Source of the DNA: Candidatus Heimdallarchaeum aukensis
Lineage (GTDB): Archaea > Asgardarchaeota > Heimdallarchaeia > Heimdallarchaeales > Heimdallarchaeaceae
Reading direction: 5' to 3'
Assembly: GCA_021513695.1 (NCBI GenBank)
Contig: CP084166.1
Location: 160,001 to 224,000 of the forward strand
DNA length: 64,000 nt
Both the position numbers and the translations under genes were made by a program. This document shows, in pieces, positions 1,293 to 25,527 of the stretch. The first letter of the stretch is position 1, and the number at the start of each line of letters is the position of its first letter. The notes beneath the pieces are model-generated. The model ran no database searches and was not told where the DNA came from. It saw only the letters and a list, made by a program, of their open reading frames with translations.

Positions 1293-2951
1293 ATGACTGA
1301 AAATTCGTCCAAAGATGAGAAAACTGCACTGATAAAACAACTTCGCTTAAGTTCTCTCCCCGTACAAAGGGAAAAGGCTGCAATATTACTAGCTAACTTT
1401 CCTGATTCTGAAGTGCTAGATGCTCTTCTAAATGCACAAATTCGTGATCCCAACCCAAAAGTTCGTGATGCAGCAGCTGCTTCTTTAGCGAGACTAATTT
1501 CATATTCAGAGGACGATGATTCAGAAATTTTGCCTGAAGATAAAAAAAAGCGATATAATCAAATTTTCAATCTAACAAAAGAAATAGAAATAATAAGACA
1601 AGGTACAACACGATTCAGATTTAACAAAAAAGATACACTTGAGATCACGCAACTTTTTAATCAGATAAAATCTGATAGATACCTCCCCAAACAGACTAAC
1701 GTTAGAAGTTTGATTAATTCTATTTTATTACTTCCAATAGATAATATTGATTTGGGAAGAGATGTAGCAATAACATTAACTGAAATACTAAAACGTAGTT
1801 TCGACGAAGAAGAAAGGTTGATAGCAATAGGTAGTTTAAGTAATATTGTAACAACAATTGAATCGTATAATCCCCTATTTGGAATTGCAGAAGCGTTTTT
1901 AATGATTTATAAGACATCAGACGATTCAGAGATGAGAATGATATCTTTTAGATGTCTCGAATTATTAATCTCAAAAACAAAATCAATGAATAAACTCAAT
2001 TACCATGTAGATAATCTTGCAAAACTTCTAACCTTCTCTTATGATAAGCGAATTCGAGAAATAGCTATATCTGCATATCCAGAGTTAGTATTTCTTTACA
2101 ACGAAAAATCTACTTTTTTAGTTGATCACATAATCAAGATTGTAAGAGCAACTTATGAAGATAGACTAAGAGAATTAGGTCTTAAAGCTCTAGAAGCACT
2201 GATTTTAAGAAAAAGGGTAACAGAAGAGAATTTTGAAAGCATTATTAAGATGCTAAAATCTCATCATTCTAAAAATATTCGAATTAGAGCAATTGAGTTA
2301 TTTCTGTCTATAATTTTACAAGCTCACGAAGATATGATAGATGATGCTTTAGCAAGTTTGTTTATTATTATGCAGAAAACAAAAGATGAAGATATATGTT
2401 ATACTGCAATACAGAATATTGAGCATTATTCATTGATAGATGTTCCTAAAGAAAATGTTCAAAATGTTTTTAGATTAATTGAAATAATTGCCACAACCTC
2501 TCCTCATCCACTAATCGCTCTAAGAGCATACAATCTTGTTTCGAAGATCATTTCAAATAAACCTAATCTCATAACAACAGACTTCATAGTCGAAATAGCT
2601 CATAATATGTTGTCTAGTAAAGATCTAGGTGTAACTGAACAGATTCTAGTATCTTTCTGTGAGTTAATCTACAATAGAGAGCTAAATCCTCTAGATATTA
2701 CACAAAATATTAGTAACATATTATTTTTATCTGATGATTCAGATATTTTAGAGGGATTAGTAACCATATTTCAGGAATTACTTGTTTCTGATAAAAGTAT
2801 TAATCCTAAAGATGTACTTGATAAATTGATAGTTATTATTTCAGAATCTAATGGAAAGCATGATGTGTTTAGAAGATTAGCTAATTTAGATGTAGATATT
2901 TTCAAAAAAAGTTCTAATAAAGAAAAATCAGAGAAGAAAAAGACCGAATAG
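1293..2951 (+). CDS. HEAT / PBS-lyase-like repeat protein
   Basis: N-terminal 'PNPKVRDAAAASLARL' HEAT-type repeat signature; all-helical repeat composition. Confidence 0.45.
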   Translation: MTENSSKDEKTALIKQLRLSSLPVQREKAAILLANFPDSEVLDALLNAQIRDPNPKVRDAAAASLARLISYSEDDDSEILPEDKKKRYNQIFNLTKEIEIIRQGTTRFRFNKKDTLEITQLFNQIKSDRYLPKQTNVRSLINSILLLPIDNIDLGRDVAITLTEILKRSFDEEERLIAIGSLSNIVTTIESYNPLFGIAEAFLMIYKTSDDSEMRMISFRCLELLISKTKSMNKLNYHVDNLAKLLTFSYDKRIREIAISAYPELVFLYNEKSTFLVDHIIKIVRATYEDRLRELGLKALEALILRKRVTEENFESIIKMLKSHHSKNIRIRAIELFLSIILQAHEDMIDDALASLFIIMQKTKDEDICYTAIQNIEHYSLIDVPKENVQNVFRLIEIIATTSPHPLIALRAYNLVSKIISNKPNLITTDFIVEIAHNMLSSKDLGVTEQILVSFCELIYNRELNPLDITQNISNILFLSDDSDILEGLVTIFQELLVSDKSINPKDVLDKLIVIISESNGKHDVFRRLANLDVDIFKKSSNKEKSEKKKTE

Positions 2952-17243: not shown

Positions 17244-19307
17244 ATGTCTCATATATTGAAGCAAAATGTAAAGATACCCAAAGAAATACTCCCATTCTAT
17301 AAATTATTTAATGATTATGAGAAAGAACAATTTCAAAAATTGTCATCTTTAAACCAAATGTCTAATTTAAATGAAATAGGTACATTATTGTTAGATATCT
17401 TTAATAAAGAAATTGAACACACTTCATATTTTATGCTTGCTCTTGGCAGAATATTATATCATACTTCAGATATGTTAAATCTTGAAAATATCTATAAAGA
17501 AACCGATTCTGCTGAAATAGGGTTATGGTACGCTTTCTTGAGAATTATTAGTTCAGACGATGTACGAAAGGAAGAAATTCTATTAGATCAACTGAAAGAA
17601 AAACTAAATTATTCCTTATTGCACCTTCTTTGGACTATTGTTGAGCTTAATTTTTATGTATATTCAGGAAATCAATTTAATTTTAGAGAAACTAAAGATA
17701 TTATAATTAATCGTTTTTTAGTTGAAGATATCGAAAATAGAGAAAAACATAAAGTGATTTTCAAGCTTTTTTATTCATATATTTTAATTATAGAAATAAA
17801 TTTGAATTTTCTACAGAATCACATTTCATATGCTAAAGACCTACTTATCCATGCTTCTGATATTATAGTTACTTTAGAAGATAGGATTTTAGAGTCGATG
17901 CAACTTAGATTATCTGCATTAATTGAGTTAAGAAAAAACAACTTTTCAACAGCTCAACATCTATTTTTACGTTCTCTTGCTCTCGCAGATATGTTAAAAG
18001 AAATAAGATTTGCAATACAAGTTAATTCAGAAATTGGAGACCTATATCTACAGATGGGCCATGTTAAAGATGCAAAATTGTTTTACGATAAATCACTAGA
18101 GCTTTTAAAAAAGCATGTACCTTATGATTCTTCATTGCAAGGCATTCTACTTTCTAAGATTGCTGATTACTATTTTGTGAATGAAAAGTTTCAAAAGTCT
18201 CTAGATTTGCTTGATGAAGCTCTTTCATTCTTTAAAGTAGATAATAATTTTTCATTTCAGATCAAACTCAAATACATTGAATATCTTTTAAATTTGAAAA
18301 AAGTTAATAAAGCAGAATCTTTGTTGGTTTCAAGTTTTCAAAAGAAAGACAATTATCTTTATTTGCAGAATCAGAGTTTTTGCCTGTATTTAAGAGGATT
18401 TATTGAATTTCTTAAGAAGAATTTTGGTAAAGCCCAGTCTTTCCTCTATGAGGCAATAGGGATTGCAGATAGAACAGGAGATGAATGGACCAGTTCAAAA
18501 TCTTTAGTTCTTCTTTTAATTTTGCTTCTTCTAAAGTATAACTTAGCTTCAAAAGTAGACGATATAGTAGAAGCAGACAAGTGTGTAGATGATATAATTA
18601 CATTTTTAGAAGAAAAAGCGAAGTTTAAAGAACTTGCTCAGATATATCTAATTCGAGCTAAGATAAGAAAAATACTTCTCGACTTTGAGACTTCACTTTT
18701 TTTACTGAAAACAGGAGAAAATATAGCTAGACAGTATTATCCTGAACTTATTACTAAATATGAAGAAAATATTGATGAGATTTCTAGACTCTTAAATTTT
18801 GAAAACATTGCAGAGACAGAAACACCCTCCATAGATTTCAAGGAAGATATTGACACAATTTTTCAAATTCTTATCAGACAGACTAAAAAACTTGGTTCTC
18901 CAATAGAAAGTATTACAATAGCCGTACTTATTTTTCATTCAAGCGGTATACCAGTTCGGACTTATCGTTCTGAAGAGCTCTATATTAGTGATGATATGAT
19001 CTTTGGTGGTTTTGTGTCAGCAATAAGACATCTGCTTGATGAATTGTTCTATTCCCAAGAATCAAAGTCTTTAAGTGTTGATCATGGACAGTACAAGCTT
19101 CTAATTGAGTTTTACAAGAATTTATTTTCTATTGTTATTCTTACTGTTCGAGATAGCTTCTTGTTACGCAGAAAGATGCATCAATTAGTTAGTTTTGTAG
19201 CTTCAAAGGATCTGTTCAAAGAGAAATATTTTGGTAAAATTGATGAACTTGCTTTGAGAGACATTGATTCATTTGTTGAGAAGTTGTTTAAAGTCAAAAA
19301 GAATTAG
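17244..19307 (+). CDS. TPR-like helical repeat protein with a C-terminal Roadblock/LC7-like domain (paralogue A)
   Basis: N-terminal amphipathic helical repeats. The C-terminal ~130 aa share motifs with the next gene: 'SGIPVRTY', 'MIFGGFVSAIRHLLDELF', 'FSIVILTVRDSFLLRRKMHQLV'. Confidence 0.45.
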   Translation: MSHILKQNVKIPKEILPFYKLFNDYEKEQFQKLSSLNQMSNLNEIGTLLLDIFNKEIEHTSYFMLALGRILYHTSDMLNLENIYKETDSAEIGLWYAFLRIISSDDVRKEEILLDQLKEKLNYSLLHLLWTIVELNFYVYSGNQFNFRETKDIIINRFLVEDIENREKHKVIFKLFYSYILIIEINLNFLQNHISYAKDLLIHASDIIVTLEDRILESMQLRLSALIELRKNNFSTAQHLFLRSLALADMLKEIRFAIQVNSEIGDLYLQMGHVKDAKLFYDKSLELLKKHVPYDSSLQGILLSKIADYYFVNEKFQKSLDLLDEALSFFKVDNNFSFQIKLKYIEYLLNLKKVNKAESLLVSSFQKKDNYLYLQNQSFCLYLRGFIEFLKKNFGKAQSFLYEAIGIADRTGDEWTSSKSLVLLLILLLLKYNLASKVDDIVEADKCVDDIITFLEEKAKFKELAQIYLIRAKIRKILLDFETSLFLLKTGENIARQYYPELITKYEENIDEISRLLNFENIAETETPSIDFKEDIDTIFQILIRQTKKLGSPIESITIAVLIFHSSGIPVRTYRSEELYISDDMIFGGFVSAIRHLLDELFYSQESKSLSVDHGQYKLLIEFYKNLFSIVILTVRDSFLLRRKMHQLVSFVASKDLFKEKYFGKIDELALRDIDSFVEKLFKVKKN

Positions 19308-19389: not shown

Positions 19390-21474
19390 ATGTCAGTAGT
19401 ATACAGTTTCCCTAGGGAATATAGTCATTATATCCCTCTTTTCACTAGAGAAGAACAAGATTTGATTAACAACTTTTCATCAAAAGTTAATAAAGATACT
19501 TCAATGGGAATCTTGAAAGATATCCTTTTAGATATTTTAGATAATCTTTCTTCCCCTTCTCTCTATTTCTTATACTCACTAGGTAAAGTTTTATTCATTT
19601 CTAGTAATTATAATCTACTTGAAGAACTCAATAAGAAATATAAAAGTGAGAGTTTAGAGCTGTGGTGGGGAAATGCTCTAATAAGGCGAACTGAGAATGA
19701 TAAAGTAATTAATCTCGCTTTGAAAATACTCAACAAGAATCCTGAAGAAAAAATAATTAGATTACATTGTTATGCCCTTTTAGCTAATGCATATGCAAAT
19801 ATGGAAAGTGAAAATCAATATAGACATTATATGCAAGAACTCTATCATGAGTCAATTATCTTTCATAGAGATTTAGATAAAGAAAAAATTGTAATAAATG
19901 ATATCCTTCTTTTTGCACATGCTATTGACATTTGGAAAGAGAGAATATCTGCACCTCTTTTAAAACTTGAAAACAAAATTGATGTAGCTTTTCAAATTGC
20001 AAAAGAACTAGGAGATCGTTATCACCTTGGAAGGTTGTACAACATAAGAGGAGTAATTTACAGATATGTAGGAAGAATCTCTGATTCATTTGAATTTATA
20101 AATAAGGCTATAAATTATTATAAAGCAGTTGGAGCTAGGAGAGGAGTAGCAGCAGCAAAAGCAAATCTTGCAACAATTTATACAATTAAAAATGAACTAG
20201 ATAAAGCCGAGAAATTACTAAAAGAGTCTCTCTCAATTTTTTTGGAAGTAGGTGATTACAAAAATCAATCCTTAATTCACTCTTCTTTAGGTGAAATTGC
20301 TATTGCTAAAGGAGATTATCACTCTGCTTTAGAATTGTATGAAGAATCTGTAAGTATATTGGAGCAAATAAACGCACACGAACTACAAGTTTATTGCTCT
20401 TTAGGCGAATTATATTATTTCTTAGGAAATAAAGAAAAAATGAAAATAATAATGAAATTCCTGCAAGAGACAGACAAAAAGAAAGAAGGATTCGTCTATG
20501 GATATTATAATTTGTTTAAAGCTCTTTTAGAAATTGATAACATGAATTATGGTAAAGCAAATGAATACTTGGAAAAAGCTTTGTCTATAAGTGATACAAG
20601 AGGAACAGGATTTTTCTCTGCAAAAATACTTCTTCAACTGTCATTGATCAACATAAAGCAATATGATTCTTTTCAAGAAAAGGAGTATTTAGAAAAAGCA
20701 AAACAGTACATAAATGATTTAGAACCATTTTATGAAGAGTTGAATAAAACAATTGAACATGTAATAATTCTATTGGTTCTTTCAAAAATATATGCAGTAA
20801 TGGAAGAATATACGAAGTCTTTTAACATTTTACAAAAAGCAAAAGATCGTCTTAATTTGTCAAAGAAAGAAAGAAAAAAGGATAAATATTACCACTTAAT
20901 AGAAAATAGAATTAAAGAACTTGAAGAAATCTTTTCAAAAGCCAAAACCGAAACATCATTCCAAAATGAAACTTTTCAATATGAAATTAAAGAAATGGAA
21001 AGTATAAGCATTAGACAAATATCAGAATATGAAAAAGAATTAAGAACTTCAATATTGGCACTTTTAATAGTACATCCTTCAGGAATACCTTTAATGAATT
21101 ATACGCTCAAGAGGTCTAGTCAATTTAGAGATGAACTAATGTTTGGAGGTTTTATTGTAGCTGTAAAAGACATGATAGAAGAGTTATTCTCTAATCCAAT
21201 GCAGAGTAAAGTAATGGTCATTAGCTATGGTAATAATAAGATAATAATGGAGCACAGTCCAAAGAGAAATTTTAGTGTAATTATTTTATCATCAAAGGAT
21301 AGTTTTATTCTACGAAGAAAAATTCATCGATTAACTCAAAATCTACAAGATATAGAGCTCCCGCAACAGTATATTGGAGAATTGACCCCTAAAACAGCTT
21401 CAAGAATAAATGAAGAAGTAAAAAATGTTTTTGGAGAAAACTTAATGCTATATGAAGGTGCTGTTCATATTTAG
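19390..21474 (+). CDS. TPR repeat protein with a C-terminal Roadblock/LC7-like domain (paralogue B)
   Basis: TPR-like units ('YHLGRLYNIRGVIY', 'AAAKANLATIYTIKNELDKAEKLLKESLSIF', 'SLIHSSLGEIAIAKGDYHSALELYEESV'). C-terminus: 'SGIPLMNY', 'LMFGGFIVAVKDMIEELF', 'FSVIILSSKDSFILRRKIHRLT'. Confidence 0.5.
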   Translation: MSVVYSFPREYSHYIPLFTREEQDLINNFSSKVNKDTSMGILKDILLDILDNLSSPSLYFLYSLGKVLFISSNYNLLEELNKKYKSESLELWWGNALIRRTENDKVINLALKILNKNPEEKIIRLHCYALLANAYANMESENQYRHYMQELYHESIIFHRDLDKEKIVINDILLFAHAIDIWKERISAPLLKLENKIDVAFQIAKELGDRYHLGRLYNIRGVIYRYVGRISDSFEFINKAINYYKAVGARRGVAAAKANLATIYTIKNELDKAEKLLKESLSIFLEVGDYKNQSLIHSSLGEIAIAKGDYHSALELYEESVSILEQINAHELQVYCSLGELYYFLGNKEKMKIIMKFLQETDKKKEGFVYGYYNLFKALLEIDNMNYGKANEYLEKALSISDTRGTGFFSAKILLQLSLINIKQYDSFQEKEYLEKAKQYINDLEPFYEELNKTIEHVIILLVLSKIYAVMEEYTKSFNILQKAKDRLNLSKKERKKDKYYHLIENRIKELEEIFSKAKTETSFQNETFQYEIKEMESISIRQISEYEKELRTSILALLIVHPSGIPLMNYTLKRSSQFRDELMFGGFIVAVKDMIEELFSNPMQSKVMVISYGNNKIIMEHSPKRNFSVIILSSKDSFILRRKIHRLTQNLQDIELPQQYIGELTPKTASRINEEVKNVFGENLMLYEGAVHI

Positions 21475-22797: not shown

Positions 22798-23625
22798 ATG
22801 ACATCTAATTTTGAGTATTTTAAAATATTAAAGCCTGTCTTAGTCACTGGAGGAATGATATTAAACCTCATGAGAGGAAAAGTAACTAATCAACCAAAAG
22901 AAAGTGATCTCCCTCCAGAATTGGTTAAAGAAAGCTCTACTGCTCACACAGAAATTGACGACTTTGTACAAGATATAGCCCTCGAAATTCTCCATTCTTC
23001 TTTACCAGATATTGGAATAAATGCAGAAGAAGTTACAGATAGAGTAAAATGGTTTAAACAAGACAAAACAGGACTCTGTTTTCATCTAGATCCCTTAGAT
23101 GGGACGCTGGCATATACAAAAAATAGAGAAGATTTTGCTATTGGTGCAGCTTTATCTGACAAATTAAAATTTATAGCCAGTGGGATATACTTTCCTGCAG
23201 TTGATAGACTTTTTTACGCAGAAAAAGGAAAAGGTGTTCTAGTTATTAATAGTTTAGGAGAAAAGATTTCATTCACTAGACCTTCCTCACCAGAAAAAAA
23301 ATATGCGCAAAAAAGATGTGATGAGTATGTTCCCATTCTAGAAAAATTAGCTTTTACAAAGCTAGATTCAATGAGTGCTCATCATAGTATGATTTCTATC
23401 CTAGAAGGAAAAGCTGCAATTCAGATGTATCATATGGCAAGCCCTCATGATTTTGGAATTCCTCAACTAATTCTTGAAGAAGCAGGAGGAATATGTACTG
23501 ATCTTGAAGGGAAACCAATAAAATATGACCCAGACTTTAATAGAGTGCCCTACTTCCTCGCTTTCTTTGATACTAAAATCAAGGACTTATTTTTCAAAGA
23601 AATAGAGAGAAGTAAAACATTGTAG
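22798..23625 (+). CDS. inositol monophosphatase / fructose-1,6-bisphosphatase family protein
   Basis: 'HLDPLDGTLAY' metal-binding motif (DPxDGT); 275 aa. Confidence 0.65.
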   Translation: MTSNFEYFKILKPVLVTGGMILNLMRGKVTNQPKESDLPPELVKESSTAHTEIDDFVQDIALEILHSSLPDIGINAEEVTDRVKWFKQDKTGLCFHLDPLDGTLAYTKNREDFAIGAALSDKLKFIASGIYFPAVDRLFYAEKGKGVLVINSLGEKISFTRPSSPEKKYAQKRCDEYVPILEKLAFTKLDSMSAHHSMISILEGKAAIQMYHMASPHDFGIPQLILEEAGGICTDLEGKPIKYDPDFNRVPYFLAFFDTKIKDLFFKEIERSKTL

Positions 23626-23809
23626 ATGACTTATTTTTTTACGTAAGTTTGTAAAAATTGAGGGAGAATTGAATGTAAAAAAAGAAAAAGGAAAGGAGGA
23701 AGGGAGTGGAAAGGAAAATGATGGCTTTTTATAGGGAAAAAAAGTATAAGTAAGTAAGAAGAGAAGAAGAAAACCAAAGAAAGAGAAAATAGAAGGAGAA
23801 AAGAAAGAG

Positions 23810-25255
23810 ATGGAGGCCGTCGTCAAAACCTTGAAAGTGAGAATAAAGAATGAGGTATTGACGACAAGGAAGAAGGAAAGGTTAAGGAGAATAACAGGAA
23901 GAGATACGAGAATAATAGAAAAGTATGTGAGAATAATACACCAAAATAGAAAAAAAATATGTATAAGAACTAAAAAAGGGAAAATAAGAGTACATAGAGG
24001 AAAATTAGACGATTTAACATTAACTACTTCAAGAGTAAAAGAAGAAGAGAGGAGAAAGACTTTTCCTCACGACCTTAAGAAAATGTTCCCCTATTGTTCT
24101 CACAATGAGTTTCAAGAGTGTAGAGATATAGCTGTACAACTATATAAACAATGGTATAGACCTAACACCACTCGTCCTCCAATAAAGAGAGCGAGAAGAC
24201 AACTAATTAATGGAAAGAGGTTCATCCTCATCCATCTACCAAAAGAAAAGAATAACACTCTCACTCGTTGGTGGGTAGGAATAAGAGACTCGTTAGACAC
24301 TTGGAAAAGAAATACCCCCTATCATCAGAAGTTGTGGTTACCTTTAGAGATGAGCGATTTCCACCAGAAAGAGTTAAAAAAAGGACAGATAAAAGGTCTA
24401 GAACTGCGATACAAACGTTCTACAAGTGAGTGGTGGGTATATTTTCAACTAAAAGTTCTTCCTCCTTCTTCTTTTCTAAGCGATAATTCCTCTTCTTCTC
24501 TTCCTCCAGCTGTGCTGGGAATAGATCTGGGGATAAACATTCCTGCTGCAGGAGTGTTACTAACCCCTAAAAAGAAGTTAACTATTAAACAGATAAAATT
24601 CTAGTATACCAAACAGTGGAATATAATCAATCATAGATATAAACTCAAACTTTCCCGTCTTCAGAGGAAAGCGGCTTTAAACGACCAGTCGGGTAAAAAA
24701 CACCAAGTTTATCGTTTTCTTGGTCTTCTTCGTCGGAGATATAGAAACGTTAAACTGGCGTATATCCACCAATTTGTAAACGATGTTGTGCGGACAATAG
24801 AGACTTATGCACAAGTGTATGACCTTTTCGTCGTCGTAGGTTATCCTAAACATATCCGTGAAGAGAAAGGAAAAGGGAAAGTTTCTCGTCAATTTCGCAG
24901 AAAACTTCATCAGTGGAACTATGCTCTTGTTCTTGGTCTTCTCCGTCGGGCATTAATATTAAGAGGTTTCGAATCTCACCGTATTCTCACTTTAGACGAA
25001 AGAGGAACATCCTCTCACTGTTCTCGTTGTGGAACGAAAGTCTCTCGCCCTGTCAGAGGGTTAATCTCTTGTTCTTCTTGTAATTACACTTTCCACTCTG
25101 ACCTCACAGGAGCAATGAATATCGCTCGAAGGTTCCTTGGTCATCTTTTCCGTCCTCGTGCAACAACTATTACTGACCACCTTACTGGCTATAAATTCAG
25201 TCTCACCCATTTCACTGTTTGCCAAGGGCTCAGCCATTGGTTGCAGTCCCAGTAG
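23810..25255 (+). pseudogene. tnpB: tnpB-like (OrfB) RNA-guided-nuclease-family gene; single reading frame interrupted only by one in-frame TAG at 24602-24604
   Basis: N-terminal 'KTLKVRIKNEVLTTRKKERLRRITG' (TnpB helix-turn-helix-like start); RuvC-I 'LGIDLGINIPAAGV'; 'LDERGTSSHCSRCG...CSSCNYTFHSDLTGAMNIARR' (Zn finger plus RuvC-III). Starts 23810 and 24788 differ by 978 = 3x326. I translated 24605-24787 and found it open in the same frame. Confidence 0.75.
24602..24604 (+). other. in-frame amber (TAG) codon inside the tnpB-like frame
   Basis: '...ata aaa ttc TAG tat acc aaa cag tgg...'; it is the only stop in 1446 nt. Confidence 0.8.
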
Positions 25256-25527
25256 ACAAAAAAAGAAACTAATTACTCTTATCTTTGAGGATAGTTATCT
25301 TTTTTTGTCTCTCGTGGAGCGAAGAAAAAGTTCCTTTCTTCTTTATGATTCCCACGATTCGTGTATGATGTCTGTCTCAACCCCTTCTTTCATTGTATGC
25401 TCTGGTTGAGTTCGCAAGAGATCAAACTCTCTTCTAGTTTTTTCTCTTGAAAGACTGAGTGCGAAAAACTTACGTAAAAAAGTAAATCATGAAAAAGAGT
25501 TAAAATCTTCTTTGTTTTTTTTTTGAT

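Follow-up and report, generated by a model that had tools for sequence, protein, structure and literature searches.

How a tnpB gene lying between the IMPase and PHP genes of Candidatus Heimdallarchaeum aukensis is delimited, and by what means it could have arrived there, are the questions raised by this locus. TnpB and its omegaRNA are usually explained through scar-free single-strand transposition (IS605) or through serine-recombinase transposition (IS607); residence in transposons with terminal inverted repeats (TIRs) is rare for TnpB in prokaryotes and the rule for eukaryotic Fanzor1. The initial annotation of the window (the whole 64-kb stretch of DNA analysed here) had described the gene as bounded by a perfect 16-bp inverted repeat, to be read either as genuine TIRs or as the two halves of a palindromic insertion site. 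We confirmed that the 16-mers TTTTTTACGTAAGTTT (23635-23650) and AAACTTACGTAAAAAA (25466-25481) are exact reverse complements, placed 10 bp past the IMPase stop codon (TAG 23623-23625) and 46 bp ahead of the PHP start codon (ATG, 25528), and found them to be the only zero-mismatch matches to the 16-mer in the window. Sixteen is also the length of the longest perfect inverted repeat between the left (260-nt) and right (305-nt) non-coding segments, and none of 1000 dinucleotide-preserving shuffles of those segments reached it (maximum 14). The repeat grows outward, not inward, to 25 nt with 23 of 25 positions matching (92%; 23626-23650 against 25466-25490). The coordinates of all features are collected in Table 1.

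Table 1. Features of the tnpB element and its junctions (coordinates of the window)
Feature	Coordinates	Strand	Basis or remark
Left AT of the CATG-like target	23626..23627	.	junction G-AT-G, straight after the IMPase stop TAG 23623-25
Left TIR (LE), ATGACTTATTTTTTTACGTAAGTTT	23626..23650	+	agrees at 23/25 positions with the reverse-complemented right end; the left 16-mer is its inner part
TATA-box-like motif CTTTTTATAGGG, putative archaeal tnpB promoter	23725..23736	+	about 75 nt 5' of the ATG
tnpB, 481 codons, RuvC-II-rearranged; pseudogene in the window	23810..25255	+	Pfam, family alignment, AF2, Foldseek
In-frame TAG (Trp265 to stop), TGG to TAG	24602..24604	+	translation
Structured non-coding RNA, predicted omegaRNA scaffold	25251..25490	+	stop codon to right end; alignment A1 and RNAalifold
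Right TIR (RE), AAACTTACGTAAAAAAGTAAATCAT	25466..25490	+	the right 16-mer, 25466-25481, is its inner part
Right AT	25489..25490	.	junction C-AT-G
3' flank of the right end, putative omegaRNA guide	25491..25506	+	analogy with TnpB/Fanzor systems

Other copies of the element reveal where it begins and ends. Protein comparison gave clusters of 18 and 31 members in H. aukensis and H. endolithica; 13 element loci are present in H. endolithica, a 100% identical protein (P0014) is encoded on the Ca. H. aukensis chromosome, and metagenomes hold further copies. All copies measure about 1.8-1.9 kb and have tnpB as their sole gene. Their homology to the window stops on the right exactly at 25490 and on the left at (C)ATG, and in the 13 H. 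endolithica copies as well as the metagenome copies it runs 9 bp beyond the 16-mer on either side. Where homology to the window sets in, all H. endolithica copies read (C)ATGnnTnnnTTTTT(T)(A/G)CG, and the last 14 nt of the right end, AAAAAGTAAATCAT, are identical in 13/13 other copies and in the metagenome copies. TIRs stand at the ends of every full-length copy found elsewhere. They are 25-31 bp long across copies and follow an imperfect consensus of about 25 bp, ATGAyTTAyTTTTTTACGTAAGTTT, also written as ATGAYTTAYTTTTT(T)RCG; the two ends agree at 23/25 positions in the window copy, at 18/25 in copies of subfamily A and at 19-21/25 in those of subfamily B. The terminus ATGAGTTATTTT recurs in L021, a relative with a TnpB of only 44% identity that likewise has TIRs.

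The element spans 23626-25490 (1.87 kb) and runs ATG...CAT. The reading of the ends as genuine TIRs, atypical for a TnpB-only IS, is supported, inverted ends recurring in all copies, but the 16-mers do not bound the mobile unit, being off by 9 bp on each side. They form the inner two-thirds of the TIR, and their perfect match in the window copy is partly due to a 1-nt deletion in its right end. The left end of the element directly adjoins the IMPase stop codon. A metagenome scan with the right-end pattern returned 120 rows, among which a similarity screen recognised a single partial tnpB element along with truncated remnants of the right end, five in number if L210 and L252 are taken together; the loci fetched from that scan contained nothing further resembling the element.

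The same copies decide on the other reading, in which an IS200/IS605-type element, GTAAGTTT...AAACTTAC, had inserted on the 3' side of TTAC, at the middle of a native palindrome, TTTTTTAC^GTAAAAAA, the outer halves of the 16-mers being host sequence and the empty IMPase-PHP site reading TTTTTTACGTAAAAAA. TTAC is the target described in the literature for IS608, and the 8-mer TTACGTAA is indeed repeated at the two ends in direct as well as inverted orientation. Yet the outer halves TTTTTTAC and GTAAAAAA, together with 9 bp more (ATGAyTTAy), are found at copy ends at 13 or more unrelated loci, and because the TTTTTTACGTAA block is equidistant from both ends in these independent copies, it must travel with the element. 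In the second subfamily (B), the internal TTACGTAA is swapped at both ends for TTGCG / TTTTTGCG(T/A)A, and TTAC is absent altogether. Lying inside the TIRs and altered at both ends together, TTACGTAA is thus not the target, and the authentic empty site described below is CATG instead. Insertion into a pre-existing palindrome is refuted by these three lines of evidence, and we give it next to no credence.

An empty IMPase-PHP site in relatives, which the initial annotation had suggested looking for, was not found: exact-protein look-ups with IMPase and PHP returned no contigs other than those breaking off within the element or bearing the same insertion, the closest orthologues of the IMPase, at 74% identity, lack synteny, and the predicted site, with a gap of 0-8 nt, had 0 matches in a metagenome scan. 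Nor was there a case of both repeats occurring as native intergenic sequence without tnpB, the finding named there as speaking against element ends.

For another copy, L007, an empty site was found on five near-identical contigs (L264-L268), which read GAGC-CATG-AGTT with flanks 98.8-98.9% identical to those of L007 and with precisely AT between the two flank alignments. The site thus contains C-AT-G once when empty and reads C|ATG...CAT|G when occupied; an uninterrupted ABC-exporter orthologue (P0128) is 99% identical. Leaving one CATG behind likewise restored long open reading frames (ORFs) in the four cases of an interrupted ORF (L006, L007, L008 and L010). Other models of the empty site, in which nothing, CG or CATATG remains, did not restore the interrupted ORFs. 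As the true empty site reads CATG, the target is CATG with a net duplication of 2 bp (AT), the single empty site fitting equally a 2-bp target-site duplication (TSD), a 4-bp CATG TSD, a 2-bp recombinase crossover or insertion 3' of CAT with no TSD.

The element hence inserts at the palindromic CATG or near variants of it, with the central AT on both sides. Junction variants are one-sided (GATG/CATG in the window, CATG/CATA in L002 and L006, CATG/CATT in L271), so that the outer C and G behave as flank. Duplication of a TA target is characteristic of IS630/Tc1/mariner elements; here every junction shows AT and never TA, and such a duplication is therefore lacking. The left flank is ...CAT in 16/17 copies, and the right end is TCAT. 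At the base 5' of the left CAT, T occurs in 0/17 copies, against a T-equivalent in 8/16 at the mirrored position on the right. Past the right end, G is the first flank base in 13/20 copies, against a genomic GC content of about 30%. That the left flank is never TCAT is an asymmetry not predicted by a purely symmetric transposase.

These flanks can also be read in terms of a single-strand element of the Y1/HUH TnpA kind (IS200/IS605, IS1341 group) that would insert 3' of (V)CAT with no TSD, in which case the element would run G...TCAT and the left-flank motif would be the TAM. A left CAT never preceded by T, beside a right TCAT, is the asymmetry expected where the TAM or target motif is unlike the right-end terminus and occupied sites are thereby spared; the net insertion seen for the empty site agrees with Y1 insertion, and TnpB is most often linked to Y1 TnpA (PMC10691335). 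Such a mechanism is nevertheless improbable here. The ends are inverted over 25-31 bp and are not direct hairpin copies; folding of six ends gave no significant or conserved single-strand DNA hairpin at either end (MFE -3 to -7 kcal/mol, z -1.2 to +0.3); and the G that follows the right end in 13/20 copies implies recognition of the full CATG palindrome, which a 5'-only rule does not predict. No Y1 gene was seen beside any copy.

The protein itself is a divergent TnpB. It matched the Pfam family Cas12f1-like_TNB at 2.9e-09, above the cut-off, and reached 82 bits with NCBIfam guided_TnpB, under the cut-off of 100, which places it as a divergent member. Among 29 family members (alignment A2), D239, G344, E397, C404/C407/C421/C424 and D431 are invariant, so that both marks of a TnpB, the RuvC acidic triad (D239, E397, D431) and the CxxC...CxxC zinc finger, are present. 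G344 forms part of VVVGYP and E397 of DERGTSSHC, 6 residues separating E397 from C404. In RuvC-II-rearranged proteins the canonical Glu is replaced, often by Gly, and an alternative Glu stands about 6 residues before the zinc finger (PMC10691335, PMC13565253); judged by these residues, the TnpB is of the RuvC-II-rearranged (RIIr or 'pro-Fanzor', Fanzor-like) type. An AF2 model (pLDDT 80) matched Cas12f, TnpB and Fanzor2 structures in Foldseek (E 1e-14 to 1e-10; Cas12f/TnpB at 1.7e-14 across the whole length), with Cas12f and TnpB ranking above Fanzor2 and no Fanzor1 among the best 50 matches listed. At the sequence level, matches in the PDB were confined to the C-terminal TNB region of Cas12f.

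In the window, the gene is a recent pseudogene with a single inactivating mutation: in the 99.0% identical contig L015, position 24603 is G, the codon reads TGG and the 481-aa ORF (P0001) is unbroken. An alternative genetic code in which the in-frame TAG is read through was ruled out, since TGG occupies that codon in the sister strain. Every H. endolithica copy retains the putative promoter motif in the form (G)TTTTTATAGG, and L021 in the form CTTTTTATAGGG.

The RuvC-II-rearranged layout bears on a further possibility, an IS607-like or other recombinase element whose circle-joined ends, GTAAATC-AT-GATTTAC, would exchange at the AT core with CATG and leave no true duplication. Such an exchange would produce the same sequence outcome as observed, and it follows from the sequences that joining the ends would create a site with dyad symmetry around AT; however, serine recombinases do not usually have a palindromic core dinucleotide, and no serine recombinase gene adjoins any locus inspected. 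RuvC-II-rearranged TnpBs and Fanzor2 are, according to the literature, frequently linked to IS607, but that family has no TIRs and ends in GG (PMC13565253), whereas here there are TIRs and ends of the form ATG...CAT. We therefore consider recombinase-mediated movement quite unlikely.

Downstream of tnpB, the element has a conserved structured RNA. RNAalifold on alignment A1 predicted 68 pairs, with 97.3% of cells paired as compared to 43-55% when partners were slid. Compensatory changes were found at 10 pairs, most of which separate just the two subfamilies and so represent few independent events. One long-range helix (helix 3, 25314-25320 with 25468-25473) involves the ACTTAC segment in the right TIR. 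Rfam offered no family for this module, returning a chance match to MIR815 alone. The 3' RNA ends at the right boundary and looks like an omegaRNA, for which a guide can also be predicted: from the position that the guide takes in characterised TnpB and Fanzor systems (PMC10691335, PMC13565253), the adjacent right flank would serve as guide, since the RNA module ends at the boundary. From 25491 on, the sequence is unrelated between copies.

The flanks also bear on the proposal that the family derives from the Asgard Cas1 (aCas1)-TnpB transposons and is moved by a casposase-like Cas1. Repeat-flanked loci of that type are the single association of TnpB specific to Asgard archaea that has been recorded (PMC10691335). 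Against a derivation of this kind, which we hold to be very improbable, no Cas1 gene was seen near any copy or relative, and no conserved GTTCACTCA-type motif follows a hypervariable stretch downstream, the flanks showing no relationship from the base directly following CAT(G) onward. The duplication is moreover 2-4 bp (maximum 4), as against 14-15 bp in casposons.

Taken together, we consider it probable that 23626-25490 represents a single copy of a non-autonomous TIR transposon that is present in multiple copies in Heimdallarchaeum (Asgard archaea), has CATG as its target, carries TnpB and an omegaRNA-like RNA as cargo and is mobilised in trans. The ends, the TIRs, CATG with its empty site, the multi-copy status, the catalytic layout, the RNA structure and the nonsense mutation are directly supported by the data. 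A transposase provided in trans and acting on double-stranded DNA would treat both ends alike. Most likely it would be a DDE enzyme making 2-bp staggered cuts, comparable to that of IS630, which has TIRs and targets the palindromic 4-bp CTAG with duplication of the central TA. The Heimdallarchaeum element resembles IS630 in having TIRs and a palindromic 4-bp target with its central dinucleotide duplicated, and differs from it in duplicating AT and not TA; to our knowledge, no DDE family has an AT duplication. TnpB with its omegaRNA would not be the transposase; as an RNA-guided nuclease, it would aid persistence through homing or retention.

None of the copies examined proved to contain a transposase gene, none of an IS630 type was identified among the copies, and two distant relatives (P0021 and P0035) are likewise solo tnpB genes with no transposase among their neighbours. 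Searches with the TIRs disclosed no second TIR-bearing element in the window or in the retrieved loci. In IMG/VR, two scans with 20-21-mer ends gave 0 matches and a TnpB-profile scan 0 relatives; the matches listed from a 15-mer end scan are presumed to be chance.

TnpB elements with inverted ends are an uncommon but already known kind. TnpBs inside TIR-bounded DDE transposons have been described, along with solo TnpBs that share ends with transposase-bearing elements (PMC10691335). The branches DDE-1 to DDE-6 (IS630, ISL2 and IS1031 types; Altae-Tran et al. 2023, PMC10691335) are alike in their symmetric TIRs and short target duplication, in a tnpB 3' end less than 250 bp from the transposon end, and in solo tnpB copies with transposon ends that are presumed to be trans-mobilised. 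In contrast to these, our family has no DDE gene found in cis or with the same ends, its dinucleotide is AT within CATG instead of TA or TNA, and its host belongs to Heimdallarchaeia. Solo Fanzor1 elements similarly have TIRs and 2-bp TSDs (PMC3627910). SPu-1 of Spizellomyces punctatus (Bao and Jurka 2013, PMC3627910) is also about 2 kb long with one TnpB-family ORF, a 2-bp duplication and more than 10 copies; its RuvC-II Glu is relocated 6 residues ahead of the zinc finger, its 3' guide RNA reaches the TIR, and its TIRs measure 33 bp as compared to 25-31 bp here. The differences lie in the prokaryotic host, a protein of 481 aa as opposed to 633, and an AT as opposed to a TA duplication. With the IS1341 group of IS200/IS605, our element shares its small size, a content of TnpB and 3' omegaRNA only and a fixed position at a specific tetranucleotide, but it has 25-bp TIRs, lacks subterminal hairpins and has a palindromic target recognised on both sides. 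IS607 and Fanzor2 are alike in that RuvC-II-rearranged TnpB is common there and in a 2-bp core common to ends and target, whereas the serine recombinase, the GG ends and the absence of TIRs that distinguish IS607 are not seen in the Heimdallarchaeum element.

For the annotation of the window, the true boundaries of the element are now fixed at 23626-25490. For the family, the result is a well-delimited, multi-copy set of TIR/TnpB elements in Heimdallarchaeum whose empty site is verified, whose target is a defined palindrome and whose catalytic layout resembles that of Fanzor. A more far-reaching idea, which we regard as unlikely, is that the family may be a prokaryotic counterpart of Fanzor1, in which a solo RuvC-II-rearranged TnpB and its guide RNA travel on a cut-and-paste TIR transposon moved by an undescribed CATG/AT transposase (IS630/Tc1-mariner-like or a new DDE type); the left-flank bias could then reflect a TAM rule by which empty sites are cut and occupied ones spared. 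If this were true, the association of TnpB with TIR transposons would fall in the archaeal lineage closest to eukaryotes. The Heimdallarchaeum family provides a concrete system in which to examine how an RNA-guided nuclease serves a double-strand transposon, what its TAM is and which transposase moves it.

The two 16-mers that the initial annotation placed around tnpB are exact reverse complements, and they lie, as it had given, 10 bp from the IMPase stop and 46 bp from the PHP start. No perfect inverted repeat between the non-coding segments on the two sides of tnpB (260 and 305 nt) is longer than these 16 nt, and 1000 dinucleotide-preserving shuffles gave at most 14 nt; a chance origin is unlikely. 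A repeat finder showed that complementarity extends outward, not inward, yielding the arms listed in the table. The true ends were mapped with 13 copies from Ca. H. endolithica (81-85% nucleotide identity to the window). At the right, homology in all full-length copies stops exactly after ...AAAAAGTAAATCAT, beyond which the flanking DNA is unrelated from copy to copy; at the left, all copies begin (C)ATGnnTnnnTTTTT(T)(A/G)CG, a position that in the window abuts the IMPase stop codon TAG. Because homology runs to 23626 and 25490, the 16-mers lie 9 bp inside each end and, contrary to the initial proposal, are not the limits of the mobile unit, which measures 1791-1875 bp across copies. Compared with the consensus ACTTTACG, the window's right end has a 1-nt deletion (ACTT-ACG), to which the perfection of its 16-mer owes something.

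Coordinates of the element, its relatives and neighbouring features
Feature	Locus	Coordinates	Strand	Remarks
Left TIR	window	23626-23650		25 nt, 23/25 vs right arm
Right TIR	window	25466-25490		25 nt, 23/25 vs left arm
16-mers	window	23635-23650; 25466-25481		
tnpB ORF	window	23810-25255	+	TnpB family, between the two repeats
TATA-like CTTTTTATAGGG	window	23725-23736		upstream of tnpB
In-frame TAG	window	24602-24604		within tnpB
Equivalent TGG codon	L015	5793-5795		calculated from alignment offset
Insertion at IMPase stop	window	23623-23628		
TTAAAA motif	window	25501-25506		22-27 nt upstream of PHP ATG
Rfam MIR815 match	window	23545-23620	-	inside IMPase coding end
TPR-repeat ORFs	window	17244-19307; 19390-21474		687 and 694 aa
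Chimeric copy	L004	2838-4696		
Copy with split tnpB	L269	1943-3559		
Target CAT	L269 (= L270)	1938-1941		start codon of minus-strand enolase gene
Remnants	L205	2089-2273; 2869-2952		
Remnant	L210	198-349		= L252 323-474
Remnant	L225	838-982		
Remnant	L193	377-429		

Two origins had been proposed for the repeat, a pre-existing palindromic host target or genuine terminal inverted repeats (TIRs). The first fails, as the TTTTTTACGTAA block at the core of the 16-mers moves with the element and is found with it at unrelated sites. Copies L007-L010, L012 and L013, which make up a second subfamily (B), have TTTTTGCG(T/A)A in its place at both ends, within a longer inverted repeat of ~31 bp. Inverted ends with an identical terminus (ATGAGTTATTTTCCCCAC vs AAGATTGTTTTTCCCCAC) occur too in L021, a relative with just 44% TnpB identity. 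Both ends thus change together across subfamilies and are genuine, co-evolving TIRs. One copy, L004, is chimeric, with the TTTTTTACGTAA left end of the first subfamily, the TTCGCAAAAAG right end of the second and a TIR match at only 12/25 positions, which suggests recombination between subfamilies.

Left junctions read CATG in ten copies, CATA in two and GATG in one; right junctions read CATG in 11 and CATA in two. Each copy was excised in silico leaving nothing, CG, CATG or CATATG. Long ORFs over the junction reappeared with CATG alone, at four loci (L006, L007, L008, L010); with the other three residues the ORFs stayed interrupted. In 3/4 of these ORFs, the CAT of the target is read in frame as His. 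The reconstructed ABC exporter of L007 retrieved an uninterrupted orthologue, P0128 (99% identical), encoded on five contigs with flanks 98.8-98.9% identical to those of L007. In these the empty site reads ...AAAAAAGAGC-CATG-AGTTTCATG..., the left flank ending on C, the right flank beginning on G and exactly AT lying between. The empty site that the initial annotation had sought was therefore found for a sister copy, while orthologue look-ups and a metagenome scan returned no empty IMPase-PHP site for the window's own copy. The site of the sister copy shows that the target is CATG and that insertion adds the element plus 2 bp. A 4-bp duplication with later mutation at the junctions is formally possible. 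Variant junctions, however, are one-sided (window GATG/CATG; L002 and L006 CATG/CATA; L271 CATG/CATT), so that the outer C and G behave as strongly preferred flank, with AT as the portion found on both sides; remnants keeping only the right end have junctions CAT-A and CAT-C. Insertions fall exactly at gene boundaries in the window and in L269.

No transposase gene lies beside any copy or beside two distant relatives in the neighbourhoods inspected, and no other type of element sharing these ends was found in the window, the retrieved loci, IMG/VR or the metagenome right-end matches retrieved. The ends are inverted and not direct, neither has a significant single-strand hairpin, and the target palindrome is recognised on both sides, the base after the right end being G in 13/20 copies in a genome of ~30% GC. 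These features argue for an enzyme that would work on double-stranded DNA and treat both ends by one chemistry, in contrast to the single-strand mechanism of IS200/IS605. IS630 inserts in CTAG and duplicates TA, and is the closest formal parallel for insertion into palindromic CATG with a central AT on both sides. TnpBs have been described within TIR transposons of the IS630, ISL2 and IS1031 types, as have solo copies mobilised in trans (PMC10691335). A recombinase exchanging strands at the AT core is a live rival: it would leave an identical sequence outcome, and the abutted ends would make a perfect palindrome, GTAAATC-AT-GATTTAC. Immediately 5' of CAT at the left junction, T occurs in 0/17 copies (A 6, G 3, C 8; window 23622-23625, L002-L014, L269 and L271), and subfamily B copies have CCAT throughout. 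The right end itself, by contrast, finishes in TCAT, and 8/16 mirrored right-flank positions are T-equivalent, a pattern that does not fit a purely symmetric model. This left-flank bias, noted post hoc in few copies, could reflect a TAM-type filter sparing occupied sites.

The tnpB product is a 100% match to K9W45_00690 of Ca. H. aukensis. It matches Pfam Cas12f1-like_TNB, while NCBIfam guided_TnpB scores 82 bits, under the model cut-off of 100; it belongs to protein clusters of 18 and 31 members in the two closed Heimdallarchaeum genomes. The window gene has one in-frame TAG. A 24.5-kb metagenome contig (L015), 99.0% identical to the window, shares the insertion site, and its 481-aa ORF is intact; the sole change at this codon is G for A at 24603, giving TGG (Trp). 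Hence the window gene is a pseudogene through a single mutation, and the shared site makes the insertion older than the divergence of the strains. Elsewhere, in L269, another copy in decay, tnpB is split into ORFs of 72, 128 and 352 aa, and L014 is 3'-truncated, keeping the left end and ~280 bp. When 29 family members drawn from Heimdall-, Thor- and other Asgard bins were aligned, the invariant residues included D239 (GIDLG), G344 (VVVGYP), E397 (DERGTSSHC; six residues ahead of the zinc finger's first Cys), D431 and four Cys. The catalytic layout is thus RuvC-II-rearranged, with Gly at the canonical Glu position and an alternative Glu elsewhere, as known from RIIr TnpB clades and Fanzors (PMC10691335, PMC13565253). 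An AlphaFold model (pLDDT 80) matches Cas12f, TnpB and Fanzor2 structures over its full length (E 1e-14 to 1e-10). The TATA-like motif upstream is kept even in the 44%-identical relative.

The 235 nt from the stop codon to the right end have a conserved structure with variable loops and 68 pairs; 97% of cells are paired, against 43-55% in slid controls, with compensatory changes at 10 pairs. A long-range helix joins GUGGAGY to ACUU(U)AC inside the right TIR. An Rfam search of this module gave no family match; from its position and architecture it is a predicted omegaRNA scaffold, for which the adjoining flank would serve as guide. Several independent remnants have lost their 5' part and retain just the final 53-190 bp, the 3' omegaRNA part and right TIR. 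L205 holds two ~600 bp apart, and that of L210 has a tRNA-like sequence ~180 bp away; such remnants may have arisen by decay or may be guide-RNA modules that stand alone.

Around the element, the TTAAAA motif is a possible TATA box for leaderless transcription of PHP; if so, the element lies directly upstream of the PHP promoter. Upstream of the OYE-IMPase genes, two adjacent ORFs with TPR-repeat matches resemble a tandemly duplicated pair. The MIR815 match (E = 0.023; 26.7 bits vs gathering 63) was taken as chance.

IS200/IS605 elements are defined by having no TIRs and by subterminal hairpins, and this element departs from both; it likewise lacks the defining features of IS607 and the TA duplication of IS630/Tc1/mariner. 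Its architecture is that of TIR-borne TnpB elements, with a particularly close likeness to the solo Fanzor1 elements of eukaryotes, such as SPu-1 (~2.1 kb, one ORF, 33-bp TIRs, 2-bp duplication; PMC3627910). The genome paper on these organisms counted transposase families and did not analyse ends (PMC8813620), and our literature search found neither this TnpB family described nor any TnpB element with a CATG/AT target. In conclusion, the element is real and well delimited, a new-found family of an already known TIR-borne kind, and is of moderate interest for its Asgard host lineage and Fanzor-like features.
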